From NCBI GenBank assembly GCA_963811775.1, contig CAWESO010000019.1, positions 122,819-186,818 of the forward strand: a DNA stretch of 64,000 nt, given 5' to 3'. Positions 8,265-53,238 of the stretch are shown here, piece after piece. How positions within the stretch are numbered: the stretch's first letter is position 1; every line of letters begins with the position of its first letter. The stretch comes from an uncultured Acidimicrobiales bacterium. GTDB taxonomy: Bacteria > Actinomycetota > Acidimicrobiia > Acidimicrobiales > UBA8190. A model generated the notes under the pieces. The model was not told where the DNA came from, made no database searches, and saw only the letters and a program-made list of their open reading frames with translations. The translations under genes were made by a program, and so were the position numbers.

Positions 8265-10921
<2,657 letters not shown>

Positions 10922-39497: not shown

Positions 39498-40442
39498 TCA
39501 CCAGACACGCAGGCTGCCCTCCGGGCTCCAACCTTCGAGAATCTCGCGGCCTCGGGCCTTGTCCAGGGCCAGGTCGAACGCCACCACGACTGCGGTAGCG
39601 ACGGGGAAACCGCCACGAGAAGCGGCCGGCGCCAGGGACAGGGCGTAGCGGGACGGGCAGACGGCGATCTCTGCCGCCGTCCAACCACCCGACGCTCCGT
39701 AGGCAGATGCGATGGCTGCGACGTCGGCGTCGTCGGCGACATAGAGCTGCGGCCAGTTCGTGCCCGCTGCAATCGGAGCCCCGAGTGCCAGCGTCCCCGC
39801 CGTTCCCGACAGTCGGTAGCGGTCGCCTGGTTCGGGCATCGGCTCAGTAGAGAGCGGTATCCAACGCGGCCTCCATCTGTCGGCGGCGTCCCAGAACAGC
39901 TCGGGCACGACTGGGCGGTTCCCGCGCTCCACCAGACCTTCACGACGAAGGGCGGTGAGAATCTCCGACACCCTGCCCGGTGATCGACCGATCTTCCGAG
40001 CCAGTTCGTTGACCCCGATGGATGTATCCGGAGACGTGAGGAGCGCGACGCAGACGTCGAAGCCCGTGCCACTCAAGATGTCAGCAACTCGAGGTGGAGG
40101 GGGTGCCGCGGTCCTCGGTCCGTCGGCGTTCACATACAGGCCAGGCGCCCTGATCCATAAGTGGCCTCGCCGGTCCAGCCAGGCGACGTCAGCGTCACTC
40201 AGACGTTGCCTTGCGACCGCCGAGATTCGATCGGCGACAACCAGCATCGGCGCCACGCCGGATCGCTGCTGGCCCTCGGCGATGAGGGCCGCATCGCCCT
40301 CGCGGACAACGCTCGTCTCCTTCACGACCAGGTCCGCACCACCGACACGAACCCCACCGACTCGTGATCGCTCGAAGTCGACGCCGGCCGCGACCAAGGC
40401 CCGCTCCAGATCATCATTCTCTACTCGTGGATCCACGGACAT
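39498..40442 (-). CDS. Hypothetical protein with a central winged-HTH (MarR/IclR-like), divergent from the Fic gene
   Basis: ORF track, 314 aa. wHTH stretch IGVNELARKIGRSPGRVSEILTALRREGLVER. I cannot assign the N- and C-terminal domains. Confidence 0.5.
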   Translation of the reverse strand: MSVDPRVENDDLERALVAAGVDFERSRVGGVRVGGADLVVKETSVVREGDAALIAEGQQRSGVAPMLVVADRISAVARQRLSDADVAWLDRRGHLWIRAPGLYVNADGPRTAAPPPPRVADILSGTGFDVCVALLTSPDTSIGVNELARKIGRSPGRVSEILTALRREGLVERGNRPVVPELFWDAADRWRPRWIPLSTEPMPEPGDRYRLSGTAGTLALGAPIAAGTNWPQLYVADDADVAAIASAYGASGGWTAAEIAVCPSRYALSLAPAASRGGFPVATAVVVAFDLALDKARGREILEGWSPEGSLRVW

Positions 40443-40491
40443 AGGGTTAGGCAGTTATCAACCAACTTGGTATTTGTTATTATACGACTCA
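40443..40491. promoter_or_regulatory. AT-rich divergent intergenic region (probable promoters of 39498..40442 and the Fic gene)
   Basis: atagggttaggcagttatcaaccaacttggtatttgttattatacgactcaatg is by far the most AT-rich 50 nt in the window. It contains TTGGTA..N..TATTATAC-like elements. Confidence 0.45.
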
Positions 40492-41685
40492 ATGATGGAA
40501 ACAAACCGAAAATCAACCGTGTTGTTTCAAACCCCGGAGGCCGACGAAATCGAGCTTCAGGTCCTAACCCAGATCGAGGATCTGAAGAAGAAGCTCCGCT
40601 GGCAGCTCAGCGAGCCGCGCCGCTGGTTCGGCTCATTGCGGCGTATGCAGTTCGCCAAAGCGGTTCAGGGCTCGAACAGCATCGAGGGGTTTGACGCCAC
40701 CCTCGATGATGCTGCCGCCATCGATCTCGGCGAGGAGCCCCTTGATGCCGATGAAGAGACTCACCTTGCCGTGAAGGGGTATCGGGACGCAATGACCTAC
40801 GTCGTTCAGTTGGCTGGTGAGCCCGACTTCACATACTCAGAGCAGCTTCTGAAGAGTTTGCATTTCATGATGACCAGCTATGACCTGAAGCTGCGCCCCG
40901 GGCTTTGGCGAGCCGGGTCCATCTACGTCCGAAGAGACGAATCAGAAGAGATCGTCTACGAAGGTCCGGACGTTGACCTAGTGCCCGACCTCATGAGTAA
41001 GCTCGTTGATAGTCTCAACGTGTCCGACGAGGCTCCCCCGATGGTGCGTGCCGCTATGGCCCACCTCGATCTGGTCATGGTGCATCCATTCAGGGATGGC
41101 AACGGACGAATGGGTCGGGCTTTGCAGACCCTCGTGCTGGCCCGAGAAGGGATTCTCTCCCCTGTCTTTTGCAGTATTGAGGAGTATTTGGGACGCAACA
41201 CCGAGGAGTACTACGAGGTTTTGGGCAGAGTAGGAGCGGGGTCATGGCATCCCAGCCGAGATGCCCGGCCGTGGGTGCGATTCAATTTCTCAGCTCATCT
41301 CCGCCAAGCCAAGACCCTCCTGCGGCGTGTCAAAGAGAGCGAACAGCTCTGGGACAGATTGGAAAGGGCGATCACACCCTCCTCTGTGCCTGATCGAACG
41401 ATCCCTGTCCTATGGGACGCAGCCATGGGATATCGAGTTCGGAACGCGACGTACAGAGCGATCTTTGAGGAGATCGGGGAGCCCATTAGTGAGGCAGTCG
41501 CTGGCAGGGATTTGCGCCAGCTCGTGGAGGCCGGACTTCTCATTCCGAAGGGCGAGCGCCGCGGTCGGCATTACCTCCGTAGTCCCGAGTTGCGGAGCTA
41601 TCGCGAGGCCATCGTTCAGGCGCGAGATCCCCGGGATGATTCCGACCCCTTTGCTGCGCGGTCTGACCGCCGCGCTTCCACCTAA
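40492..41685 (+). CDS. Fic-family protein (AMPylase-type), class II with an N-terminal inhibitory helix and a C-terminal wHTH-like domain
   Basis: 3' part of ORF 39955..41685; start at ATG 40492 (MMETNRK). Fic core motif HPFRDGNGRMGR. Inhibitory motif (S/T)xxxE(G/N) present as SNSIEG upstream of the core. Confidence 0.9.
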   Translation: MMETNRKSTVLFQTPEADEIELQVLTQIEDLKKKLRWQLSEPRRWFGSLRRMQFAKAVQGSNSIEGFDATLDDAAAIDLGEEPLDADEETHLAVKGYRDAMTYVVQLAGEPDFTYSEQLLKSLHFMMTSYDLKLRPGLWRAGSIYVRRDESEEIVYEGPDVDLVPDLMSKLVDSLNVSDEAPPMVRAAMAHLDLVMVHPFRDGNGRMGRALQTLVLAREGILSPVFCSIEEYLGRNTEEYYEVLGRVGAGSWHPSRDARPWVRFNFSAHLRQAKTLLRRVKESEQLWDRLERAITPSSVPDRTIPVLWDAAMGYRVRNATYRAIFEEIGEPISEAVAGRDLRQLVEAGLLIPKGERRGRHYLRSPELRSYREAIVQARDPRDDSDPFAARSDRRAST

Positions 41686-41994: not shown

Positions 41995-42132
41995 TTAACG
42001 ACAGTGTTCGGTTCCGATCGTGTGCTGTCCGTTTATTACGCAGAAAACGGATTTGGCCGGTCGATCGGCGTCAGCAAGGTCGTCGGCGAGGTTCTCAGCA
42101 AACTCTGCGCGACACAATTTTCGAGTGTTCAT
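41995..42132 (-). CDS. Hypothetical 45-aa protein
   Basis: This is the internal ATG of ORF 41995..42255, preceded by GGAGGA at a 9-nt spacing. Product: MNTRKLCRAEFAENLADDLADADRPAKSVFCVINGQHTIGTEHCR. No family recognised. Confidence 0.3.
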   Translation of the reverse strand: MNTRKLCRAEFAENLADDLADADRPAKSVFCVINGQHTIGTEHCR

Positions 42133-42271
42133 TGCTACGAGTCCTCCGCTCCATGTCCGCACTTCGCTCGCTGCCGTGATGCCGGCGCCAGGCCTGAACG
42201 AAGGAGCGGCGGTGGCGGTGCGCTCTGGTTCAGTGAGAAACCCGAGTTGCCACATGACGTCACTCCTCGTA

Positions 42272-42340
42272 GTCTCCCCACGTTAAGTGGGGAGACCATC
42301 TCCAAGAGAAGACTGATCCGGGGGGGGTTTTGATGGTCTC
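42272..42340. other. Nested inverted repeats. One is a perfect 10-bp stem (GTCTCCCCAC gttaa GTGGGGAGAC, 42272-42296). The other is a 9-bp pair, GAGACCATC (42292-42300) with GATGGTCTC (42332-42340), flanking a G8T4 tract.
   Basis: Read directly. The element lies in non-coding, lower-GC DNA between the small minus-strand ORFs and the first Tad-associated gene. Confidence 0.7.
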
Positions 42341-42474: not shown

Positions 42475-43377
42475 ATGGCTGACAGGCACAGCGCGCTCAG
42501 GTCCCGGTCCCGGAGGATGTGGATCGGGATCGCCTTGGTGGTCTTTGTCGCCTCGCAGGGGGCATTCGCGGCGTGGGCAGCAACGACGTCGAGCTCGGCT
42601 TCCGACGGTGGAGGCACCGTCAGGGTCGGTGCGGCCAGTCAAAGCTCGACACCCGGTCGGACGGCACGTCGAGGCCCCATCAGGAGCGCGAGCTCTGGCT
42701 TGGCCTGTACGTACGTTCCACTCCCCGCGAAGGATGCCGCGACGATTGGACCGGGCGGTCCGACGCCTGGGAGCTGGTTTTTTGTCAAATGTCCCGGCAG
42801 GACCCTGACGATCTACAACGGCGCCATTTCATGGTTCCCGTCGGCGCCTGCAACCGCGCCGTCGACAGCGGTTTCGCCCAGCGCACTGGCCACGCGAGCA
42901 GCGGATTCCCTGACCCTTCCGCCGCCCGCCGCGAGCGTGAACCCGACCGCGTTCAGCATCGTGAATTTGGCGACATGGCTCTGGATCGATCCTCAGATCT
43001 GGCACCCGTTCAGAGCATCGGCGACGGCAGGAGGAGTGACCGCGACGGCCGTAGCCGTGCCGGACACCGTGTCGTGGTCGATGGGAGACGGGCACATCGT
43101 CACATGCGACGGTCCCGGGTCTCCGTATCAGCCGACGATCCCGCCCGACGCTCAATCGACTGACTGTTCGTATACCTACCGCACGTCGTCTGCCGGCCAG
43201 CCCAGCAGTGACGGCGATCCGAACGACGACGCTTTCACGGTCACAGCGACGATCACGTGGACAGTGAGCTGGACCTCCACTGGGTCCACAGGTGGCGGGG
43301 TCCTGCCGCCCCTTCAAACCAGTTCGACGATTCCGATACGCGTCGAACAGGTCGAATCCATCGGAACCGCGGGCTAA
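42475..43377 (+). CDS. Secreted or membrane-anchored hypothetical protein, first gene of the Tad cluster
   Basis: ORF track, 300 aa. N-terminal RSRSRRMWIGIALVVFVASQGAFAAWA (signal or anchor). The C-terminal domain has conserved-looking Trp and Cys residues (NLATWLWIDPQIW, VSWSMGDGHIVTCDGPGSPY, STDCSYTY). It ends 23 nt before cpaB. Confidence 0.55.
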   Translation: MADRHSALRSRSRRMWIGIALVVFVASQGAFAAWAATTSSSASDGGGTVRVGAASQSSTPGRTARRGPIRSASSGLACTYVPLPAKDAATIGPGGPTPGSWFFVKCPGRTLTIYNGAISWFPSAPATAPSTAVSPSALATRAADSLTLPPPAASVNPTAFSIVNLATWLWIDPQIWHPFRASATAGGVTATAVAVPDTVSWSMGDGHIVTCDGPGSPYQPTIPPDAQSTDCSYTYRTSSAGQPSSDGDPNDDAFTVTATITWTVSWTSTGSTGGGVLPPLQTSSTIPIRVEQVESIGTAG

Positions 43378-43400
43378 CCGCAAAACGCGCCGCCATCGTC

Positions 43401-44123
43401 ATGTCCACGATCATCAACCGCCAAGCCGCGAACCAGCAGACGTCAGACCCTCCTCGATTCCTCGGGACCGGCTATCGCCGTCGGCCGATCCTCGCGGTCG
43501 CGTCCGTGGTCCTGATGACATCCTGTGTTGCGGTATTCACCAGCGTCTACCTGCATGCTGGGAAGAAAGTCGCCGTCCTGGCCTTGGCTCGTGACGTCCC
43601 AGAGGGACAGCCGATCACAAGAAACGATCTCTCGGTGGTGGGCGTCGCGTTCTCCCGAGGCTTGACTCCGATCCTGGCCCAAGACGCGAGCCGTGTCGTC
43701 GGCCAAACGGCGGCCGTCTCGCTGGTGCGAGGGACGCTGGTCACGCAAGCCGAACTCGCTGACCGCGGAGAACCATCCAATGGTTCCGCGATTGTGGGGG
43801 TGGCGACAAAGGTTGGTCAGCTCCCGGCGGGTGGAGTGGCCGATGGTGACACGGTGGATGTCGTCCTCACAGGATCCCTGAGCACGCTCACGGATGGATC
43901 ACCTGATGGTGGATCGTCGGATGCGTCATCGCCCGCTGGGGCAGTAGAGATCGGTGGCATTTTGGCTCAGGGAGCCACGGTCACTGATGTGGCCCAGCCC
44001 ACGTCTTCAGATCCGGACACGGTTGTCGTGTCCGTTTCGATCCGGTCCTCGTTAGCCCCACTTGTCGCAAGCGCCTCCGCGGCTGGACAGGCCGCTCTCG
44101 TGCTGGTCGCGCCCAACGCATGA
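43401..44123 (+). CDS. cpaB: Flp pilus assembly protein CpaB/RcpC-like (SAF domain)
   Basis: 3' part of ORF 43257..44123; start at ATG 43401. N-terminal TM segment ILAVASVVLMTSCVAVFTSVYL, followed by a SAF-like region ALARDVPEGQPITRNDL. Confidence 0.75.
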   Translation: MSTIINRQAANQQTSDPPRFLGTGYRRRPILAVASVVLMTSCVAVFTSVYLHAGKKVAVLALARDVPEGQPITRNDLSVVGVAFSRGLTPILAQDASRVVGQTAAVSLVRGTLVTQAELADRGEPSNGSAIVGVATKVGQLPAGGVADGDTVDVVLTGSLSTLTDGSPDGGSSDASSPAGAVEIGGILAQGATVTDVAQPTSSDPDTVVVSVSIRSSLAPLVASASAAGQAALVLVAPNA

Positions 44124-44953
44124 CGTTGATTGCATTCTGCTCGGGCAAGGGTTCACCTGGAGTCTCGACATTGGCATGCGTGGCCGGGGCTGTATGGCCC
44201 TCGAACAGGCCCATCGTGCTGGCCGAATGTGATCCCTCGGGCAATGATCTCGCGGCGCGCTTCGGGCTATCTCCCCGGATCGGCATGACGAGCCTGGTCC
44301 TCGCCCATCGACACCGCGAGCACGCTGAACCAACGTTCGACGCCCACTTGCAGTCTCTGCCGGGGGGTCTTGAAGTGCTGGTTGGCCCGGTGAACCCGGA
44401 CGCATCGGGCAGCCTGGACACGGAGTTGAGCACAGTGGGAGTGGCCATCTTCCCGAAGGCAGTCGACATCCTTGTCGATTGCGGGAGAGTCCTGGGCGGC
44501 ACGGCCGGTCAGTTAGCGATCTTGCAGTCAGCTGATCGTGTCGTGGTCGTGAGCCGGCCAGATATCTCCGACCTTGCGCATGCCCTATGGACGCTTGATC
44601 TTGTTCGGGATCTGGCCCCTAATGCCGAGGCCTCATTCGTACTCGTCGGGTCGGGTCGATTCGGATTCGCCGAGATCGAGCAGGCACTTGGAGTTGCGCC
44701 TCTCGGGGTGATCCCCCTCGACGCGAAATCGGCCGCGATGGTGTGCGGGCTACCGGGCAGAGCCAAACGATTCGCCCGGAGTGCCCTTGTGGATGCCGCA
44801 CGACAGCTGGTGGACCGGCTGATCCCTCCCACCACTCGAGACGCCGTCAACTCCGAGATTGAGGAGACAAGCCAGCACCCAAAGTCGATGACCCTTCCCG
44901 TGTTGAGCCACAGCCTGGAGTCTTCGGCTTGCTCCAAAGGTGATCCCCCGTGA
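44120..44953 (+). CDS. ParA/MinD-fold TadZ/CpaE (Ssd)-like pilus localisation ATPase with a deviant Walker A
   Basis: ORF track, 277 aa. Contains IAFCSGKGSPGVSTLA (deviant P-loop) and VLVDCG (Walker B-like). The ATGA overlaps cpaB. Confidence 0.7.
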   Translation: MTLIAFCSGKGSPGVSTLACVAGAVWPSNRPIVLAECDPSGNDLAARFGLSPRIGMTSLVLAHRHREHAEPTFDAHLQSLPGGLEVLVGPVNPDASGSLDTELSTVGVAIFPKAVDILVDCGRVLGGTAGQLAILQSADRVVVVSRPDISDLAHALWTLDLVRDLAPNAEASFVLVGSGRFGFAEIEQALGVAPLGVIPLDAKSAAMVCGLPGRAKRFARSALVDAARQLVDRLIPPTTRDAVNSEIEETSQHPKSMTLPVLSHSLESSACSKGDPP

Positions 44954-46347
44954 TGTCGACCGATCACCTGACGTCGTTGGTGGGGAGGCTTCGCGTCGAG
45001 GTTGCCGATGACCTGTCTGCAGTCACCGGACACGAGTTGGGGATCGATGATCGTCGCGAGCTCGCTCGAACACTGACTTTGGCTCGCCTCGAACGCCTGG
45101 CGGCGGAGACGGTCGGAGCAGGTGACAAACCGCTCGGAGTGGCAGAGGAGCAGCGTGTCGCCCGAGCCGTGCTGGACGCCCTGTTCGGCCTGGGACGCCT
45201 GCAATCACTCATCGATCAGCAAGACATCGAGAACATCGACGTGAACGGATGCGACTGTGTGTGGGTCACCTACGCGGACGGGATGAAGGAACGTGTCGAT
45301 CCCGCAGCCGACTCGGATGCCGAGTTGGCCGAGATCATCCGGTCGGCGGCAGCCCGCTTCGGTCTCTCAGAACGACGATTTGACGTCTCTCACCCGGAGT
45401 TGGACCTGCGCCTCCCTGACGGAAGTCGCCTCTCGGCACTGATGTCGGTCGTCGGTCGGCCTGTTGTGTCGATCCGACGTCACCGGTACGTCGATCTCAC
45501 GCTGGAGGATCTTGTGGAGATGGGCGGGCTCGACCCGACTCTGTCGAGCTTCCTGGCCGCTGCCGTTCGAGCCCGGAAGAACATCGTCATCGGTGGCGCG
45601 ATGAACTCTGGCAAGACCACGTTGGTACGGGCGTTGGCTTCTGCCATCCCTCCCCGAGAACGAGTCGTGACAATCGAACAGGCCTTCGAGCTTGGGCTCG
45701 ATTCGATTCCAGATCGACATCCCGACCTCGTCGCCCTCGAGGCTCGACCCGCGAACGCGGAAGGAGAGGGGCAGATTTCTATGGCGCGGCTTGTGCGAAG
45801 AGCGCTACGAATGAATGCCGACCGGGTGATCGTGGGCGAGGTGCTTGGTGACGAAGTCCTTCCCATGCTCAACGCCATGAGCCAGGGTCGCTCAGGGTCG
45901 ATGTGCACCATTCATGCCGACTCATCGCTTGGGATCTTCCGTCGATTGGCTTCCTATGCGATTCAAGCGCCAGAGCACCTTCCCGTGGAGTCCACCAATC
46001 TGCTCATTGCAGGGGCAATCCATTTTGCCGTCTTCGTCGAGGTCGCCGACATCGACACACCTTCGGTCGATATGCGCTACCTGAGCGGCTGGCAAAAGGA
46101 TGTACTCACTCAGGGGCGTGAATCTGGTCGCGTTCGATTCGAGGCTCTGAAGAGACGCCGTTTAGTCTCCTCCGTCCAAGAAGTTGTTGGGTCAGAAGGT
46201 CTGAACGTGATTTCGAACGAGGTCTATCGCGCCAACTCCGACGGCTCGATATCTCAGGTCGCACCACTGCGGACTGCAACTCTGGAGGAGCTGGTCAGAC
46301 ACGGATTCGAACCGTCCTTGCGAAGTTCAGAGGTCGCATCGTGGTGA
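44950..46347 (+). CDS. tadA: CpaF/TadA-family type II/IV secretion ATPase
   Basis: ORF track, 465 aa. Walker A GGAMNSGKTT, Asp-box and Walker B RVIVGEV, His-box GSMCTIHA. Confidence 0.95.
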   Translation: MMSTDHLTSLVGRLRVEVADDLSAVTGHELGIDDRRELARTLTLARLERLAAETVGAGDKPLGVAEEQRVARAVLDALFGLGRLQSLIDQQDIENIDVNGCDCVWVTYADGMKERVDPAADSDAELAEIIRSAAARFGLSERRFDVSHPELDLRLPDGSRLSALMSVVGRPVVSIRRHRYVDLTLEDLVEMGGLDPTLSSFLAAAVRARKNIVIGGAMNSGKTTLVRALASAIPPRERVVTIEQAFELGLDSIPDRHPDLVALEARPANAEGEGQISMARLVRRALRMNADRVIVGEVLGDEVLPMLNAMSQGRSGSMCTIHADSSLGIFRRLASYAIQAPEHLPVESTNLLIAGAIHFAVFVEVADIDTPSVDMRYLSGWQKDVLTQGRESGRVRFEALKRRRLVSSVQEVVGSEGLNVISNEVYRANSDGSISQVAPLRTATLEELVRHGFEPSLRSSEVASW

Positions 46348-47219
46348 TGACTCCGGTTGTGGCGATGCTAGGGCTCGGCACAGGCATAGGGATGGTCGGG
46401 ATTGCCGGCGTCTTGTTACCGATGTCGAGCCCGGACCTGTCTAGGGGGGTCTCCCATCCCCTGGAGTCCTCTGTGCGGGGACGAGGCTTCAGCTCGGCCG
46501 TGGTGGCGTCGATGCGTCGAGCCGCCGTCCCGATCGGCGTTGGACTGCTTTGTGTTCTTGTGACCCGATGGCTCGTGGCCGGCCTGTTGGGTGGGCTTGC
46601 TGCGGCCACATTGCCGAGCAGCCTCCACAAGGCACAGCCTGGTGCAACGTCGAAGACGGCCGAGGCGGTGGCTACATGGACCGAGTTGATCCGAGACTCC
46701 TTGGCGGCATCAGCAGGCCTGGCGCAGGCGATCGTTGTCACAGCTTCGTCGGCGCCCGTACCGATTCGACCGCAAGTCGACGCCTTGGCGACGCGGCTGG
46801 CCAACGGCATCCCCCTCGAGGCCGGATTGCGCTCTTTTGCCCTCGAGGTCGATGACGCGTCTGCCGAATTCCTTGTCTGCGCTCTGCTCCTTGCCGCCAC
46901 AGCGAGGTCCCAGCGGCTGGTAGAGGTTCTCAGCGCTCTCGCGGAGTCCGTCCGGGAAGACGTCTCGATGAATCTCCGAGTCGACGCAAGCCGCACGTCG
47001 GCGCGAAGCAGTGTCCGAACCATCGTGATCTTCTCGCTGGTGTTCGCGTCCGCATTGGCGCTTCTCGCCCATTCGTATCTCAGCCCCTTCGGGACCGCGG
47101 TCGGGCAACTCGTTCTGGGAGCCGTGGGGTTGCTCTATGCCCTCGGAATATCGCTCATGATCCGACTCGTTCGCCCAGCGGGTTCACCCAGGTTGCTGGA
47201 AGCGGAGGCAATCGAATGA
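46341..47219 (+). CDS. tadB: TadB-like type II secretion system F-family membrane protein
   Basis: ORF track, 292 aa. Polytopic, in the T2SSF position after tadA, and overlaps the tadA stop. Confidence 0.8.
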   Translation: MVMTPVVAMLGLGTGIGMVGIAGVLLPMSSPDLSRGVSHPLESSVRGRGFSSAVVASMRRAAVPIGVGLLCVLVTRWLVAGLLGGLAAATLPSSLHKAQPGATSKTAEAVATWTELIRDSLAASAGLAQAIVVTASSAPVPIRPQVDALATRLANGIPLEAGLRSFALEVDDASAEFLVCALLLAATARSQRLVEVLSALAESVREDVSMNLRVDASRTSARSSVRTIVIFSLVFASALALLAHSYLSPFGTAVGQLVLGAVGLLYALGISLMIRLVRPAGSPRLLEAEAIE

Positions 47220-48124
47220 CGGTGGTCGTGTTGGCTGCCCTCGGCGTCGGAGCAGGCCTCGTAGGCATCGTGATCGGGTGTCGCGCCCAGAGGACGTCGT
47301 TGCGCGGTGCCCTCACCAACCTGACAGTCGAACAAGTGGCCGTGCCTCGATCAACGGTGCCGGTGTCACCATCGAACCATGGGCGACTGGATCACCGGGT
47401 GGCAATCCACATTGCCGACTCGGTGCAAGGGCGCAATCTTGTCAATCGCGAATTCCACCAGCGGCTCGCCCTCGCCAACACCTCACTCGTGGACGTGTGC
47501 GCCCGGTGCCTCGTGTGCATCTTCGTCGGCGGTTCTCTTCCCATTGTGATGTGGTTGATCGTGAGCGCAGGGGGCCTGCATGTTCCAGGCCTCGTCTTTC
47601 TCATCGGAGCGTTGATCCTCGGGGCCGGTGGAGGAGTCGTGCCGATCGCCGAGTTGAATGCCGAGGCCAAGCGCAACCTGCGTCAGGCAAAAAGAGTCAT
47701 TTGCTCCTTTCTCGACCTGGTCGTCCTTGGTTTGGCTGGTGGCATGGGCATCGAGAGCGCTCTTCTCACCGCGGCCCAACTAGGCGAAAACCCCGTGTCC
47801 CGCCGCATGTTCACCGCCCTCACCCTCAGCCGAGATACGGGCGAACCCCCTTGGGATGCCCTGGCCCGTCTAGGGGAATCACTCGGAATCGACGAGCTGC
47901 GCGACCTGGCGGCCGCGGCCGGGCTGGCAGGCACGGAAGGGGCCAGGGTTCGAGCGACTCTGGCCGCACGGGCAGCGACCATTCGTCGCCACGAACTCGC
48001 CAATGCGGAAGCCGAGGCGAACGCCCTGACAGAGAAACTGTTCGTCCCCGGCGTGTTCCTCCTGATCGGGTTTCTCATCTTCATCGGGTACCCGGCCTTT
48101 ACTCGGATCGCGCTGGGCTTCTGA
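47216..48124 (+). CDS. tadC: TadC-like type II secretion system F-family membrane protein
   Basis: ORF track, 302 aa. Polytopic. The ATGA overlaps tadB. Confidence 0.8.
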   Translation: MTVVVLAALGVGAGLVGIVIGCRAQRTSLRGALTNLTVEQVAVPRSTVPVSPSNHGRLDHRVAIHIADSVQGRNLVNREFHQRLALANTSLVDVCARCLVCIFVGGSLPIVMWLIVSAGGLHVPGLVFLIGALILGAGGGVVPIAELNAEAKRNLRQAKRVICSFLDLVVLGLAGGMGIESALLTAAQLGENPVSRRMFTALTLSRDTGEPPWDALARLGESLGIDELRDLAAAAGLAGTEGARVRATLAARAATIRRHELANAEAEANALTEKLFVPGVFLLIGFLIFIGYPAFTRIALGF

Positions 48125-48203
48125 TAGATGACGAACGGGGTGTCGGGGGATGGGTTGGAGTGCAACAGAACAGAGAAAACGGAGAGGAAGGGAAGGGCTA
48201 GCC

Positions 48204-48392
48204 ATGTTCGTTCAGCTCAGAGGCCTGTGGGCCTATGCGTCGGCCAGATGGATGGTGACGACACGCGGAGAGGAGGGAAGCGTCGTCGAAAAGGTCATCC
48301 TCACCGCTGTGTTCGCCGCTCTTGCCATCGCCGTGGGTGCGATCATCGTCGCCAAGGTGATGGACAAGGCGAACTCGATCAACCTGAACTAG
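48204..48392 (+). CDS. flp: Flp/Fap-family pilin precursor
   Basis: Internal ATG of ORF 48150..48392, preceded by the purine-rich GGAGAGGAAGGGAAGG. Product: MFVQLRGLWAYASARWMVTTRGEEG|SVVEKVILTAVFAALAIAVGAIIVAKVMDKANSINLN (leader, Gly, Glu-containing motif, hydrophobic helix). Confidence 0.8.
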   Translation: MFVQLRGLWAYASARWMVTTRGEEGSVVEKVILTAVFAALAIAVGAIIVAKVMDKANSINLN

Positions 48393-48820
48393 TGCCGATC
48401 GATCCGGTGATCGTTTGGGAGACCGGCACCGTCAGGCATCGCTGTCGAATCGACGAGAGCGGCTCCGTGGTGGAAGCCGCGATCGCGATTCCCGCGGCAA
48501 TGTTGGTGATCTTGTTGTCGGTACAGGTCTGTCTCTGGGCCCACGCGTCAACACTCGTTCAAGCCGCAGCGACTCGAGGTGAGCAGGCGGCGTGCGTCGA
48601 GAATGGCACGTTGGCCTCGGGGATGTCTGCCGCACAGTCGGCTCTGGCAGAGACGGCCAATCATGTCGTCCTTGACGCGTCGGTTCGGGCGTCGAGCATT
48701 CCCGACGATGAGGTGGAAATGCGGGTGACGGGAACGACCGAATCGATCATCCCCGGACTACATCTTCCCGTGTCTGCGACCCGGATCGCTGTGAGGCAGG
48801 AGTTTCGTGTCGATGGATGA
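48392..48820 (+). CDS. TadE-like pseudopilin
   Basis: 3' part of ORF 48128..48820. The GTG at 48392 overlaps the flp TAG. N-terminal motif ESGSVVEAAIAIPAAMLVILLSVQV. Confidence 0.75.
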   Translation: MPIDPVIVWETGTVRHRCRIDESGSVVEAAIAIPAAMLVILLSVQVCLWAHASTLVQAAATRGEQAACVENGTLASGMSAAQSALAETANHVVLDASVRASSIPDDEVEMRVTGTTESIIPGLHLPVSATRIAVRQEFRVDG

Positions 48821-49259
48821 CTCCGCGTGTCGCGTGTCGGGCAGGTCGATTCGGGACCGATCACGCGGCAGTCTGACCGTCGAGCTCGTCGTGTTGACGC
48901 CCGTGATCGTCGTATTTCTGCTCGTCGCGCTGGCATTCGGAAGGTATGCATTGGCGAAGGAGCAGCTGGTCGGAGGTGCGCGGGCGGCGGCCGATGCGGT
49001 CGCCGTCGCTGGGTCGGCACTGCAGGCGCAACAGGCTGGCAGTGCAGCGGCCATGCCGGTGCTCCAATCCGATCACACGTGTACGAATCCGACGGTCTCG
49101 GTTGCATCGTCCTCATTTGTGGCGGGGGGACAGGTGCGGGTGTCGGTGTCGTGCCAAGTGGCGCTCTCTGACCTTCTGATCCCAGGGTTCCCCGGAACTG
49201 TGACCGTTCAGGCTGATCAGGTCGCGACGATCGACCCTTATCGGGCCGTGCAGCCATGA
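48807..49259 (+). CDS. TadE-like pseudopilin (second copy)
   Basis: ORF track, 150 aa. Motif SRGSLTVELVVLTPVIVVFLLVA. Confidence 0.75.
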   Translation: MSMDDSACRVSGRSIRDRSRGSLTVELVVLTPVIVVFLLVALAFGRYALAKEQLVGGARAAADAVAVAGSALQAQQAGSAAAMPVLQSDHTCTNPTVSVASSSFVAGGQVRVSVSCQVALSDLLIPGFPGTVTVQADQVATIDPYRAVQP

Positions 49260-49720
49260 CCACACGAAATCGATGCGGATGCCCCCAACTATCGAGTGAC
49301 CCGTGTCATGCGTGTGAGTCCTGGGACGAAGGGTCCTTTACGGTGTTCCTTGCCGTGCTTGCCGTCGCCCTGTTTGCCCTCGTGGGGCTCGTTATCGATG
49401 GTGGCCGAGCCGTTGCCGCACAGAGCGCTGCGACTGGGGATGCCGAGCAGGCGGCGCGACTTGGTGCTGACCAGATCTCGGTCGAAGCGGTTCGTTCCGG
49501 GATCGTTTCCATCGATCCAGTGGCCGCTGCCAGAGCGGCTGACGATTATTTACACGCGGTCGGGAGTCCAGGTCACGTCACTGTCTCGGGACAAACGGTG
49601 ACCGTGCGAATCAAGACCTCCGAGCCAACGGTGATCCTGGGGATGATCGGATTGAGCCAAATCGGGGTCTCGGCATCCGCCAGTGCGACAAATGTGCACG
49701 GTGTGACTCGGGAGGATTGA
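49256..49720 (+). CDS. TadG-related (Tad_N, TadE/G-like) pilus assembly protein
   Basis: ORF track, 154 aa. Contains DEGSFTVFLAVLAVALFALVGLVIDGGRA. The ATGA overlaps the previous gene. Confidence 0.7.
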   Translation: MTTRNRCGCPQLSSDPCHACESWDEGSFTVFLAVLAVALFALVGLVIDGGRAVAAQSAATGDAEQAARLGADQISVEAVRSGIVSIDPVAAARAADDYLHAVGSPGHVTVSGQTVTVRIKTSEPTVILGMIGLSQIGVSASASATNVHGVTRED

Positions 49721-52626
49721 TGAGATTCGCCTCCAGGCCCAACCATGTAACACGACATCGGGGTATGGCAGTCCGAGGTGTCACGACGTTGGGAGTCATC
49801 GGCCTGGTGCTGGGAGTTCCTCTTGCCATGATGGCAATTCACGCACTCCCACCTTTGGAACAGATTCGTAACATCGCAGGGCACCCAGATGATCTGCGCC
49901 GGGTGTTCGACGAGCGCGTCAGTGATCAGACGATCACAGGGGTGGTGGCTGCCATCGCTTGGCTGGTGTGGGCGTGGTTCGTCGTCTGCGTCATTGCAGA
50001 ATTGGTGGGACGTGTGCGTGGTCGTTCTCCTAGCAAGGTGCCCGGGAGCCGACACCTTCAATCACTCGTCGCAGGCCTTCTCGGCGCCTCACTCGCATTC
50101 GGTGTTTCCAGTCGGCAGGCATCGCCACTGAGACTGCGCGTCGCCGCTATGTCGGTGTCCACTCCATACACCGAACCTCCCACCAAACTGCCGAAGCATC
50201 TGAAAAGGCCTGAGACACCGAATTTCGTCATGACCGACACCGAGACTCCTGAGCCGGCCGATTCGACGGCTCCGGTGTCCCCCGAGCGGATTTACGTGGT
50301 CAAGCCACGAGACACACTCTGGTCGATAGCCGAGGCGGAGCTTGGCTCCCCCTTGCAATGGCGGAGGATCGCAGAGGCTAACTACGGCCGACGTCAGCCT
50401 GACGGTGGCGAGTTCACTGATGATCATTGGATTCGACCTGGTTGGCTTTTGGTCATTCCGGTGCCAGGCATCAGTCAGGTCGAAACGCCTCGGGCATTCC
50501 CCGTCGCAACCGTCGATCCGCCACCCGGTGGGGCGGCGCCGGTGGTCGATGGTTCCCCGGCACCGGCATATGCCACGAGCGGGCCCCCCTCAGAGTCCGT
50601 GACGTCATCTTCCGTGAAGAGCGTCCCAGATCCGTCGTCGGCGACAAACGGCCACAAAGAGACGGCCCCTTCCTCTTCGCCGGGTTCGTCAGCGCATCCT
50701 GGAAAGGTTGGAGTGCCAGGACCGCACATTCCGGTCACGCCGATCGGATACGGACTTCTCGGGGCAGGGGTCGTCTCGTTGCTCGACCGAATGCGCCGAG
50801 CCCAGCAGAGAAAACGACCCGCCGGACTCCGGATCGCCCTTCCCGACGGTGATCTGATCGAGTTGGAGCGTGGGTTGCGGATCGCAGCTGATCCCGGAGC
50901 GGTCGACTGGGTCGACCTCAGCCTTCGACTTCTTGCCGTGGCGGTCCGGCGGAATCATCGGGACACGCCACTGGTCTCCGCCGTGTGCCTCCGTGAGGAC
51001 GTTGTCGAGATCATGTTCGACCCCTCGAGCGAGCCATCCCTCCCGCCACCACCCTTCGAGCCTGGACCGCTGGTCTCGAGCTGGGTACTGGGGAAGACGG
51101 GTCAACGCATCGAGTCTTTGCGCAATGACCCAGAGGTAGTGGGAGTGGATGCCCCACTGCCATCGCTCGTCACCCTGGGTCGGAATGCGGTCGGGATCGT
51201 TCTGCTCAATATCGAGCGAGCGGGATCTGTGGCCGTCTCCGGGCCTGATGCCGACCTTCTGGTCGAGGCCATGGCGGTCGAGCTCGCCACGACCAAATGG
51301 GGCGATCAGATCGACCTGGTGCTCGTGGGGTTCGGCGGAGACATCTCAGGTCTCGAGCGTGTCAGTCACGCCGGATCACTCCAATCCGTTCGCACCAAGA
51401 TGAAGCGGCGCACTCGCGAGCGTGCCGCATTGCTCACCCTCGCCCAGCGAACCACCAACAGTGATACCCGGTGGCAGGACGGGGGAGACGCCTGGGATGT
51501 CTGTGTCGTCGTCTGCACATCCAAGGTGTGCAGGGACGAGGCTTCAGCTCTCGAAGAGCTCATCGAGATCGCAGGGGACGGGTCGCTGGGCGTCGCTGTC
51601 ATCTGTGGCGACGACGCCCAATCGGTACGGTGGCGCGTTCGAGCTGAAGACGGTCGAGTGTCCGTCGACGACTGGCGGATGGAATGGGCGTCCCTTGCTC
51701 GCCAGCCAGTTCCATCGAATCTCGTGACTCGTATCGCCGAGCTTGTTTCGGTTGCCGCCCAGACTGAGGGAGTCGTTCCTGACGCTGAGGCCTGTGAACG
51801 ACCGTCGCTCCAGGCGGCGGAATGGGAGCCGCCCGGGATGAGGCAGACCAACGTCGGCGGTCAGGACGCGGCAGGCACCATCGTGGATTCGGATCGTCCG
51901 AATGTGCTCGTGAGTGTTTTGGGCCAGGTGGCAATCACGGGAGCAGCTCGGCAGTTCTCCCGAGCGTGGGCCGTCGAGCTGGTTGTTTATCTGGCCCTTC
52001 ACCCGGGCGGCGCAAGCAACGAGCAGTGGGCAACGGCCCTCTGGCCCGACAAGGTGATGGCTCCGGCGAGCCTCCACTCAACAGCGTCGGCCGCGCGTCG
52101 GTGTCTCGGCACCTCCGATACCGGGGACGACCACCTCCCTCGATCACGAGGTCGGTTGGCACTGGGGCCTGGTGTTCAGACCGATTGGGACAGATTCGTG
52201 CAGCTGTCGCGGTCGCCGGCTGCCGAAGACTGGCGCCAAGCAATCCGACTGATCCGGGGCCGACCCTTCGAAGGGCTCCGCTCTCCCGACTGGGTCGTGC
52301 TCGAGGGCATCCAGGCTGCCGTCGAGGCCGGTGTCGTGGATTTGGCGCACCGCTATTGTCACCACTGCCTCGAGGTTCTCGATGCAGCCGGCGCCGAGTG
52401 GGCTGCGCGTCAGGGGTTGCGTGTCAGCCCATATGACGAACGCCTCTATCGCGTTCTCATGAGCGCTTCGGACGTTGCCGGCAACCCTGCGGGAGTCGAA
52501 TCCGTAATGGCCGAACTCGTCCATCTCGTCGCCGACGACATCGAGCCTTTCGATGCGGTGCATCCCGAAACGCTCGCTTTGTACCGCACCCTTTCGCGAC
52601 GCTCAGCCGTATCACGAAGCCGGTGA
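49720..52626 (+). CDS. Polytopic membrane protein with an extracytoplasmic LysM domain and a cytoplasmic SARP-type module (OmpR-like wHTH plus BTAD)
   Basis: ORF 49717..52626 (TTG 49717 or ATG 49720, overlapping the TadG stop). By eye there are four TM segments at aa ~22-44, 72-96, 114-131 and 340-357. LysM at aa ~192-248 (IYVVKPRDTLWSIAEAELGSPLQWRRIAEAN...GWLLVIP). wHTH at aa ~729-800 (VLVSVLGQVAITG...AVELVVYLALHPGGASNEQWATALWPD). BTAD at aa ~820-960 (WDRFVQL...PYDERLYRVLMSA). Confidence 0.75.
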   Translation: MRFASRPNHVTRHRGMAVRGVTTLGVIGLVLGVPLAMMAIHALPPLEQIRNIAGHPDDLRRVFDERVSDQTITGVVAAIAWLVWAWFVVCVIAELVGRVRGRSPSKVPGSRHLQSLVAGLLGASLAFGVSSRQASPLRLRVAAMSVSTPYTEPPTKLPKHLKRPETPNFVMTDTETPEPADSTAPVSPERIYVVKPRDTLWSIAEAELGSPLQWRRIAEANYGRRQPDGGEFTDDHWIRPGWLLVIPVPGISQVETPRAFPVATVDPPPGGAAPVVDGSPAPAYATSGPPSESVTSSSVKSVPDPSSATNGHKETAPSSSPGSSAHPGKVGVPGPHIPVTPIGYGLLGAGVVSLLDRMRRAQQRKRPAGLRIALPDGDLIELERGLRIAADPGAVDWVDLSLRLLAVAVRRNHRDTPLVSAVCLREDVVEIMFDPSSEPSLPPPPFEPGPLVSSWVLGKTGQRIESLRNDPEVVGVDAPLPSLVTLGRNAVGIVLLNIERAGSVAVSGPDADLLVEAMAVELATTKWGDQIDLVLVGFGGDISGLERVSHAGSLQSVRTKMKRRTRERAALLTLAQRTTNSDTRWQDGGDAWDVCVVVCTSKVCRDEASALEELIEIAGDGSLGVAVICGDDAQSVRWRVRAEDGRVSVDDWRMEWASLARQPVPSNLVTRIAELVSVAAQTEGVVPDAEACERPSLQAAEWEPPGMRQTNVGGQDAAGTIVDSDRPNVLVSVLGQVAITGAARQFSRAWAVELVVYLALHPGGASNEQWATALWPDKVMAPASLHSTASAARRCLGTSDTGDDHLPRSRGRLALGPGVQTDWDRFVQLSRSPAAEDWRQAIRLIRGRPFEGLRSPDWVVLEGIQAAVEAGVVDLAHRYCHHCLEVLDAAGAEWAARQGLRVSPYDERLYRVLMSASDVAGNPAGVESVMAELVHLVADDIEPFDAVHPETLALYRTLSRRSAVSRSR

Positions 52627-52806: not shown

Positions 52807-53238
52807 ATGAGCAATACGACGACGCTGTCAGGCAACCTGACCCGGGATCCGGAGATTCGATACACGCGGGACGGCCAGGCCAATGCGACGTTCGGCTTGG
52901 CCGTCAACCGCCGGTGGCAACCACGGGGATCCGATGAATGGGAAGAAGCTACGTCGTTCTTCGACGTCGTTTGCTGGAGAGATCTCGCCGAGAATGTCGC
53001 GCTCAGTTTGGTGAAAGGCAGTCGGGTTATCGTGACCGGTCGCCTCGAACAACAATCGTGGGAGACCGAGAACGGCGAACGCCGCAGTCGAGTGGAGGTG
53101 ACAGCGGAGGAGGTCGGCCCGTCTCTTCGGTTCGCCACAGCAGAGATCTCTCGCAACGAGCGTCGCGGTCCTGAGCAAGCCGGGCAAGGGGGAAACTCCG
53201 GGGTGGGCGACTCCGAGGTTGTCGGCATCGACGCCTGA
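52807..53238 (+). CDS. ssb: Single-stranded DNA-binding protein (OB fold) lacking the canonical acidic C-terminal tip
   Basis: ORF track, 143 aa. Contains LSGNLTRDPEIRYTRDGQANATFGLAVNRRW...FFDVVCWRDLAENVALSLVKGSRVIVTGRLEQQSWETENGERRSRVEVTAEEVGPSLRFA. The C-terminus is ...GVGDSEVVGIDA. Confidence 0.9.
   Translation: MSNTTTLSGNLTRDPEIRYTRDGQANATFGLAVNRRWQPRGSDEWEEATSFFDVVCWRDLAENVALSLVKGSRVIVTGRLEQQSWETENGERRSRVEVTAEEVGPSLRFATAEISRNERRGPEQAGQGGNSGVGDSEVVGIDA

Follow-up and report, generated by a model that had tools for sequence, protein, structure and literature searches.

The subject of this study is the gene that closes the Tad pilus operon in 64,000 nt of DNA from an uncultured Acidimicrobiales bacterium (GenBank assembly GCA_963811775.1, contig CAWESO010000019.1, positions 122,819 to 186,818 of the forward strand). 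I will refer to the whole of this stretch as the window. The gene (49720-52626, + strand) encodes a membrane protein of 968 amino acids (aa) that combines a LysM loop, an FtsK-like pseudo-ATPase and, at its C-terminus, a SARP module, in which a winged helix-turn-helix (wHTH) is followed by the domain BTAD. I give roughly even chances to the protein being a membrane-integrated, SARP-type activator dedicated to the Tad system, including the case in which it serves the pilus structurally as well. Support for the activator reading comes first from the SARP module itself, which is homologous to those of AfsR and EmbR, is predicted to have the same fold, has kept most DNA-contact positions and is among the best conserved parts of the protein, and also from the topology with its LysM loop, the pseudo-ATPase and membership in the operon.

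The Gene and Its Position in the Operon

The gene is an uninterrupted open reading frame (ORF) of 968 aa. The A of its start codon (ATG, 49720) is also the last base of the TGA that ends the 154-aa ORF before it (49256-49720), which matches the Pfam family Tad/TadE and is the TadG-like gene of the operon, and GGAGG lies 4 nt 5' of the ATG. The ORF listing also permits a start at TTG 49717. A preliminary description of this DNA, made from the sequence alone, had placed the start on the TadG-like stop (TGATG) and the gene at the end of a Tad operon, and both statements hold: the overlap is the single base at 49720, and the annotated genes upstream are, in order, one for a 300-aa protein, CpaB-like, TadZ-like, TadA, TadB, TadC, Flp, TadE, TadE and TadG-like. 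The operon is compactly packed, with stop/start overlaps at most junctions.

The SARP Module

The module consists of an OmpR-type wHTH (aa 726-830, 51895-52209), recognized by Foldseek and by profile, and the TPR-like bacterial transcriptional activation domain, BTAD (aa 831-960, 52210-52599). A profile built from the family matches EmbR of Mycobacterium tuberculosis in the PDB with an E-value of 2e-15 over positions 7-243 of 246, i.e., the entire wHTH and BTAD, and AfsR of Streptomyces coelicolor with an E-value of 3e-7 over positions 4-242. The match of the same profile to the DNA-binding domain of CadC is weak (E = 4e-3). Foldseek aligns the predicted structure with the SARP of AfsR in RNA polymerase complexes (8k60/8hvr) at TM-scores of 0.66-0.69 and with EmbR at 0.46-0.50. 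Searches of the PDB by phmmer, with the whole protein and with the C-terminus, gave only a weak match to LysM and matches to designed repeat proteins. At E ≤ 0.01, BTAD was found in 18 of 40 relatives and in 26 of another 42, sampled from the best 150 profile matches described below, and Trans_reg_C in 1 of the 40. The SARP module is therefore a divergent one, given a BTAD score below threshold and no match to Trans_reg_C, and the complete C-terminal wHTH and BTAD claimed in the preliminary description are borne out by profile and fold, single-sequence Pfam scores falling short.

The residues by which AfsR contacts DNA have been seen by cryo-electron microscopy and include W74, P79, T88, S91, R92, R94 and K95 (PMC10936776). 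Profile alignment, from which P79 was left out, pairs W74/T88/S91/R92/R94/K95 with W775/S787/S790/A791/R793/R794, so that five of the six mapped positions are kept or conservatively replaced. All five (S787, S790, R793, R794 and W775) are unchanged in each of 25 relatives from Acidimicrobiales, which have 36-73% identity. The recognition helix lies at aa 782-796 (ASLHSTASAARRCLG, 52063-52107). To judge from the alignment, the positions that touch the DNA backbone appear to have been kept and the arginine specific for bases to have been lost. Conservation by domain is 0.78 for the wHTH, 0.79 for BTAD, 0.78 for the last transmembrane segment with its juxtamembrane stretch, 0.72 for LysM, 0.58 for the RecA-like core of the middle domain and 0.23-0.30 for the linkers.

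The SARP module is joined to the rest of the protein by a disordered, unconserved tether of about 35 aa (aa 689-725, 51784-51894), in which the predicted local distance difference test (pLDDT) is below 50. The tether raises a variant of the activator reading, in which a signal from the wall would lead to proteolysis within aa 689-725 and so to release of a soluble activator resembling the small SARPs. The fragment released would have about 245 aa, near the size of small SARPs, about 300 aa (PMC10972967). Against release are the lack of a conserved protease gene in the operon and of a conserved cleavage motif in the tether, and I consider it distinctly improbable.

Membrane Topology and the LysM Loop

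A Kyte-Doolittle scan finds four hydrophobic segments, at aa 22-42, 75-95, 113-131 and 337-357. They correspond to the helices at 12-39, 69-99, 110-131 and 346-365 of an AlphaFold2 model of the full-length protein, made with an alignment of 40 sequences (mean pLDDT 78.7, predicted TM-score [pTM] 0.65). The first segment, TM1 (49783-49845), follows a basic N-terminus with 5 K/R in aa 1-22. TM2 (49942-50004) contains a conserved W81/W84 motif and is followed by a basic cytoplasmic loop, aa 96-112, after which TM3 (50056-50112) heads outward. TM4, together with the highly conserved basic juxtamembrane sequence LDRMRRAQQRKRPxGLRIALP that extends to aa 377, occupies 50728-50850.

The K/R clusters of the 968-aa protein are found at the N-terminus, in the loop between TM2 and TM3 and in the 20 residues after TM4. 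In 25 close and 40 diverse relatives the mean net charges of these three segments are about +3, +4 and +5, and the loop between TM1 and TM2 and the flanks of the long LysM loop are near neutral. Hydropathy, predicted helices and this family-wide bias in charge together support a topology with the N-terminus inside, the long loop outside and the remainder inside, as had been proposed by eye from the positive-inside rule.

The outer loop carries the LysM domain at aa 190-250 (50287-50469). Pfam matches LysM to aa 192-247 at an E-value of 4e-4 (20.7 bits, narrowly missing the gathering score, which is 20.9) and finds LysM in 34 of the 40 relatives and in 38 of the 42, the best at an E-value of 1e-16. 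AlphaFold2 predicts a beta-alpha-alpha-beta unit at aa 190-250 with pLDDT above 90. The domain has an insertion specific to the family, GRxQPDGxxLTDDHWIxPGW, and is flanked on both sides by disordered, unconserved linkers, of which the one rich in Pro and Ser (aa 251-336, 50470-50727) has pLDDT below 50 and conservation of 0.23. The placement of LysM outside the cell, in the cell wall, is supported by the four transmembrane segments and the positive-inside bias throughout the family, in agreement with the preliminary description.

A Degenerate FtsK/EccC Domain

Between TM4 and the tether lies a cytoplasmic domain of about 310 aa (aa 378-688, 50851-51783), made up of an N-terminal subdomain and a RecA-like core. 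The preliminary description had speculated that this region has an FtsK/EccC-like P-loop fold that has lost the Walker A lysine, and the speculation proved sound. Folded alone by AlphaFold2, the domain reaches a pLDDT of 85 and a pTM of 0.84. In Foldseek the domain alone matches the FtsK motor (E = 4e-8, TM-score [TMq] 0.47-0.49), the conjugative coupling protein TcpA (E = 7e-8) and EccC (E = 3e-6, TMq 0.45, root-mean-square deviation 6 Å). All matches to the FtsK motor, TcpA and EccC/EssC have a probability of 1.0, both in the full model and in the isolated domain, with E-values from 4e-8 to 1e-4.

A profile of the middle region matches EccC of Thermomonospora curvata (4nh0) with an E-value of 1e-3, aligning the family's GSxxVxGxxxxAxxL with GHVGVAGGPQTGKSTML of EccC. 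The P-loop position (aa 502-514, GSVAVSGPDADLL, 51223-51261) has thereby lost its lysine and serine, and the protein reads SGPDADLL where EccC has GGPQTGKST. GK[ST] is missing from the Walker A position in all 245 sequences of the family that were inspected. The Walker B position reads VCVVVCTS, by eye rather than by rigorous alignment. By its fold, its profile match and its loss of the P-loop, the middle region is a pseudo-ATPase of the FtsK/EccC type. Canonical ATP hydrolysis is ruled out because the P-loop lysine is absent throughout the family. An active DNA translocase was considered as well and rejected for want of a Walker A motif in any of the 245.

Distribution of the Family and Its Tie to Tad Operons

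A word-indexed search found 105 relatives, of which about 70 are full-length and come from metagenome-assembled genomes of Acidimicrobiales. More distant relatives, of 1,000-1,480 aa, occur in Streptomyces, Kitasatospora, Embleya, Myceligenerans and Umezawaea. Where the sources give a name, it is generic: "LysM peptidoglycan-binding domain-containing protein", "BTAD domain-containing putative transcriptional regulator" or "SARP family transcriptional activator". When a profile of the middle domain was used in an exhaustive search of cluster representatives (50% identity), 3,740 matched at E ≤ 1e-3, and a stricter limit of E ≤ 1e-30 left 1,649. The top 150 matches are nearly all 950-1,150 aa in length, with the middle domain at about 350-750.

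For a genome-wide search of loci, an alignment of 25 close sequences was used. With one genome per species in GTDB, 184 Acidimicrobiales genomes encode a relative. I examined 80 Acidimicrobiales loci, 73 of them informative in having enough upstream flank. In 72 of the 73, a complete, co-linear tad operon ends directly at the start of the gene, every time with a TadG-like gene. The typical order is CpaB-TadZ-TadA-TadB-TadC-Flp-TadE-TadE-TadG and then the LysM/SARP gene, and the Flp pilin, nearly identical, is present in 67 of 71 related loci. All eight distant members checked (Streptomyces flaveolus, Myceligenerans xiligouense, Kitasatospora setae, Umezawaea sp., three metagenomic contigs and the Cutibacterium acnes plasmid pIMPLE-HL096PA1) have the identical gene order, with the LysM/SARP gene at the end. 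The C. acnes member is PAGK_RS11975, of 1,037 aa. Co-occurrence of the architecture with tad genes elsewhere, a check set beforehand, was thus found in 80 of 81 informative loci.

The sole exception is a locus (L024, 8948-16764) with no tad operon. Directly upstream of the 972-aa member, a TadZ-like gene is all that is kept, and its product is 38% identical to the TadZ-like protein of the window. The gene after the 972-aa member encodes an AAA_16/TPR protein of 1,201 aa, again with BTAD at the C-terminus; C-terminal BTADs are therefore found also in other large proteins of these genomes.

So constant an association suggests the main rival reading, in which the protein belongs in fixed stoichiometry to the Tad machine of monoderms and plays no part in transcription. 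LysM would anchor the machine in peptidoglycan, a ring of pseudo-ATPases under the membrane would dock the TadA hexamer and TadZ, and the wHTH and BTAD would have been re-used as a surface for protein-protein interaction, for a function like that of FimV/HubP, TsaP or ExeA/GspA. In its favor are the near-obligate, co-linear and translationally coupled terminal position of the gene in the 80 loci, its travel with the operon on plasmids, and the exceptional locus, where the TadZ-like gene kept directly upstream hints at a partnership with TadZ. FtsK, EccC and TcpA form membrane-proximal rings, and the domain here follows a transmembrane segment as it does in EccC. The loci contain neither a secretin nor TadD, from which I infer that they lack another anchor that spans the wall, and the searches of the loci for a SARP box, considered below, found none. 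Against the scaffold, the wHTH keeps most of the DNA-contact positions of AfsR and has an invariant recognition helix, and the full pair of wHTH and BTAD is kept in all clades, when a TPR-like domain alone would suffice for binding a protein. Furthermore, Tad clusters of Micrococcus luteus make functional Flp pili and are described as ending at TadG (PMC4322843). Since those pili are made with no mention of such a gene, it is not generally needed for Tad pili in monoderms. A purely structural role is a real possibility, but I think it on the unlikely side.

Homologues occur on 169 actinobacterial plasmids (records such as NC_021086.1, 37631-40744, and NZ_CP108618.1), 137 of them from Streptomyces, and a close homologue of TadA is found on 134 Streptomyces plasmid records, as compared with 137 for the LysM/SARP family. 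The subtype of Tad operon that includes the LysM/SARP gene is often mobile. Some loci are flanked by genes for Replic_Relax, DUF2637, TcpC-like proteins or integrases (L081, 872-1786 and 13486-15294; L085, 150-1274), a "conjugal transfer protein" is annotated adjoining the tad locus of C. acnes, and the Umezawaea operon (L084) is interrupted by an integrase cassette.

Mobility brings to mind a third reading, that the protein is a DNA-handling relic or receptor derived from a translocase of the FtsK/TraB/TcpA type and that it would serve the pilus in taking up DNA or transferring plasmids, perhaps by keeping DNA close to the membrane. FtsK and the TraB of Streptomyces have the order transmembrane segments, FtsK fold, C-terminal wHTH, which is similar overall to the order here, and it is the FtsK motor and TcpA, a conjugative coupling protein, that match best in structure. 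The 169 plasmids and the Replic_Relax, DUF2637 or TcpC-like flanks of some loci fit such a role, the C. acnes plasmid is described as having TraB-, VirB4- and TcpC-like conjugation functions (PMC5696575), and Tad pili are required for transformation of M. luteus (PMC4322843). The tad clusters that serve competence in M. luteus, however, are described without such a gene (PMC4322843), and the locus in the window and many others are chromosomal. Absence of the Walker A lysine in 245 of 245 members leaves no motor activity. The wHTH belongs to the OmpR/SARP type and not to that of FtsK-gamma or TraB, and it is joined to a BTAD, the domain by which AfsR touches RNA polymerase. This role seems to me very improbable.

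A Proposed Activator at the Membrane

If the protein is an activator, its parts could work together as follows. Its place in the membrane would be with the Tad machine or close to it, and the LysM loop, on its long flexible linkers, would bind peptidoglycan and so position the protein, or sense, where the pilus crosses the wall. The pseudo-ATPase might serve as a module for oligomerization and docking beneath the membrane, much as the membrane-proximal DUF domain does in EccC, with the TadZ/TadA motor complex as its likely partners. A change in oligomeric state would then allow two tethered SARP modules to bind direct repeats side by side, and the paired modules would recruit RNA polymerase as AfsR does. 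The targets would be transcribed near the membrane and might be the tad/flp operon itself or genes for a surface lifestyle. AfsR offers a precedent for regulation of a SARP by a domain of P-loop fold, since in AfsR the SARP is inhibited by NOD and TPR (PMC10936776).

Several observations weigh against the activator. Foremost is its missing target, the weakest point of the reading. No direct-repeat SARP box common to the family was found in or around the loci. A pattern scan for CTCCCC-N5-CTCCCC (7+4 spacing) gave matches in the closest clade only, despite a recognition helix that is invariant throughout the family, and the only 7+4 direct repeat is ACTCCCC-GTAG-TCTCCCC, at 42262-42279 of the window. 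A second candidate box, also limited to one clade, is a set of three nTGCA elements described below. A screen for exact 6-mers at 11-bp spacing matched only conserved coding sequence of downstream genes, and one for degenerate 7-mers 5' of the operon and of flp yielded no motif across clades. Promoters of SARP-dependent genes usually have poor -35 hexamers. The tad promoters, recognizable in 21 of 62 loci, have an ordinary sigma-70-type appearance with reasonable -35 hexamers (TTGCCN-17-TAGTCT, TTGCGG-17-TATCGT). Within the protein, the position of the base-specific R92 of AfsR is alanine (A791); Pfam scores BTAD (aa 833-940) at 19.2 bits, under the cut-off of 22.1, so that LysM and BTAD are both slightly below gathering; and Trans_reg_C has no Pfam match in the 968 aa at E ≤ 1. 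The membrane tether, moreover, restricts access to DNA, and a constant position as last gene, with overlap of start and stop, is more typical of a stoichiometric part of a machine.

The preliminary description had gone further than architecture and operon position, proposing a one-component link from the state of the wall or pilus to transcription. The architecture and the position stand. The link fares less well, in view of the lack of a conserved box, the ordinary promoters and the equal fit of a structural part with membership in the operon.

A more specific form of the activator reading, which I regard as unlikely, gives the protein both roles: it would be a permanent component of the Tad machine and also the output by which that machine acts on transcription, i.e., a surface-sensing pathway for monoderms in one protein, carried also by plasmids of Cutibacterium acnes and Streptomyces. 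Assembly or retraction of the pilus, or its contact with the wall, would be sensed by the LysM loop and by a ring of pseudo-ATPases docked on TadA/TadZ, and the signal would be converted within one polypeptide into SARP-dependent activation of promoters at the membrane.

Sequences Upstream of the Operon and of flp

The window has a promoter-like sequence, TTGCCA-17-TAGTCT (42247-42275), that opens a conserved element (42247-42335, + strand) with a two-hairpin leader ending in a G-run/U-run. The element lies 228 nt 5' of the first gene of the operon and is conserved, with unconserved flanks, in 13 close loci (including L001, 2517-2610, and L077, 1440-1533). One hairpin is formed by CCCCAC/GUGGGG and the other by CCUCC/GGGGG around an invariant loop, AAGAGAACACUGAUUC, and a U-run follows. 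Folding favors the plus strand (-18.2 kcal/mol, against -13.1 for the minus strand), the only one on which the G-U pairs are valid. The direct repeat ACTCCCC-N4-TCTCCCC lies within the element. A search of Rfam gave no match at the gathering threshold or at E ≤ 10, by which identity with 6C RNA was rejected. Rejected too was a function as leader of a small minus-strand ORF (41995-42255), for that ORF is unconserved and the plus strand folds better. The minus-strand neighbor in related loci is an unrelated SRAP gene, absent from the window. The element may be a leader, an attenuator or a small RNA.

In a second clade (L033, L035, L039, L051, L075 and L078) the tad promoter TTGCGG-17-TATCGT is found 75-160 nt 5' of the first tad gene, with a conserved palindrome, GTTGCA-N8-TGCAAC, in front of it. 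The palindrome may be the operator of some regulator and can be read alternatively as three nTGCA elements at a spacing of 11-12 bp, the last within the -35 hexamer.

The spacers between TadC and flp carry locus-specific, A/C-rich tandem repeats in L043 (about 1520-1660), L079 (about 8300-8420), L048, L070, L072, L044 and L074. The repeats include about 12 copies of AACCGAACC in L043, about 10 of CCATCAG in L079 and 6 of CACAGT in L048. There are no tandem repeats in the TadC-flp spacer of the window. The repeats could be unstructured translation leaders or phase-variable tracts.

Other Genes of the Operon and Its Surroundings

The remaining genes of the operon are all on the + strand. The first (42475-43377) encodes a secreted or anchored, Ser/Thr-rich protein of 300 aa, with an N-terminal signal or anchor and no match to a Pfam or NCBIfam family. 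A protein of about 300 aa is conserved in this place in 62 of the 80 loci, and genes of similar size hold the first position in Streptomyces and Myceligenerans (L081, 2611-3525; L082, 1404-2315). It could be an adhesin or a pilus-associated protein. The CpaB/RcpC-like protein with an SAF domain comes next (43257-44123, the real start probably later than that of the ORF), and after it the MinD-type protein resembling TadZ/CpaE/Ssd (44120-44953). The Walker A region of the latter (CSGKGSPGVST) lacks the P-loop lysine, by eye; if so, the operon has two proteins of ATPase fold without a canonical P-loop beside an active TadA.

TadA/CpaF, the T2SSE ATPase, is encoded at 44950-46347, and the T2SSF platform proteins TadB and TadC at 46341-47219 and 47216-48124. 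The Flp prepilin (48204-48392) has 62 aa and a processing site EEG|SVVEK that gives a mature pilin of 37 aa. The flp gene is absent from the ORF listing, lying in a different frame beneath an over-extended 230-aa TadE ORF (48128-48820), and the real start of this TadE is therefore probably 3' of flp. This minor-pilin-like protein is followed by a second TadE (48807-49259) and the TadG-like protein (49256-49720), minor-pilin-like as well.

Downstream, the next gene encodes single-stranded DNA-binding protein (SSB; 52807-53238, + strand), after a gap of 180 nt in which no terminator-like site was detected. SSB is found on the same strand 3' of the operon in 29 of the 80 loci. On the other side, a Fic-domain gene (39955-41685, + strand) lies 5' of the operon in the window; its place is taken in close relatives by a divergent SRAP (YedK-like) gene.

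Relation to Known Systems

In architecture the protein is a variant of SARP activators and of membrane-bound wHTH regulators, with a LysM loop and a degenerate FtsK/EccC domain joined on. Its likeness to the SARPs AfsR, EmbR, ActII-ORF4 and RedD lies in the OmpR-type wHTH followed directly by BTAD, in profile homology and predicted fold, and in Trp, Ser/Thr and Arg/Lys positions that are conserved on the surface facing DNA. The SARP classes distinguished in a review of 2024 (small, medium, large and SARP-LAL) all have an N-terminal module; none is described as bound to the membrane, and the word "membrane" is absent from that review (PMC10972967). Here, in contrast, the module is C-terminal (aa 726-960 of 968), behind four transmembrane segments; its fusion partners are these segments, LysM and an FtsK-like domain in place of NB-ARC/TPR or FHA; its gene belongs to a pilus operon and not to an antibiotic gene cluster; R92 of AfsR is replaced by Ala; and a direct-repeat target was not found.

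With EccC/EssC, FtsK and TcpA the protein shares a RecA-like fold and an FtsK-type N-terminal subdomain right after the transmembrane segment(s). However, the TM-scores are only 0.45-0.49, the Walker A lysine is absent, there is one domain where the others have three or four in tandem, and there is no link to genes of the type VII secretion system, to chromosome segregation or to a relaxase.

ToxR, CadC and TcpP likewise have in one polypeptide an extracytoplasmic domain and a cytoplasmic OmpR-type wHTH that would have to reach DNA at the membrane. In ToxR and CadC the cytoplasmic wHTH is N-terminal and is followed by a single transmembrane helix and a C-terminal periplasmic sensor. The order is reversed here, with four transmembrane segments instead of one and with BTAD, the pseudo-ATPase and the LysM ectodomain in addition; homology, as in the weak match to CadC, is limited to the wHTH.

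The proteins FimV and TsaP have LysM outside, and ExeA a different peptidoglycan-binding domain; all are membrane-anchored and tied to machines for type IV filaments. The cytoplasmic domain is TPR in FimV and of P-loop type in ExeA. These proteins are from diderms, have no wHTH and aid secretins or the organization of the pole. FimV/HubP, TsaP and ExeA (GspA) serve here as a working analogy, sequence likeness being known only for LysM.

The preliminary description knew of no such protein having been characterized, and searches of the open full-text literature, subscription journals being outside its scope, indeed found no description of the family. The study of the C. acnes plasmid follows the tad locus as far as four TadE-like genes, leaving the large downstream gene unmentioned (PMC5696575). 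No genetic data on a role in pilus assembly were found in the literature, PMC5696575 and PMC4322843 among it.

Significance

Tad pili serve adhesion and colonization and, in Micrococcus, DNA uptake, and their anchoring and regulation in monoderm Actinomycetota are largely obscure. A very large uncharacterized family now marks one phylum-wide subtype of actinobacterial Tad operon, in Acidimicrobiia, Streptomyces, Kitasatospora and Micrococcales and on the tad plasmids of the skin bacterium Cutibacterium acnes. The SARP family, studied almost only as soluble activators of antibiotic clusters, gains an architecture that is C-terminal, membrane-tethered, LysM-bearing and linked to a dead domain of the FtsK/EccC type. 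If the protein is regulatory, it would be a compact device for signaling across the envelope; if structural, it would be the missing wall anchor of monoderm Tad machines. Homologues are present in cultivable hosts, so that either outcome is testable.

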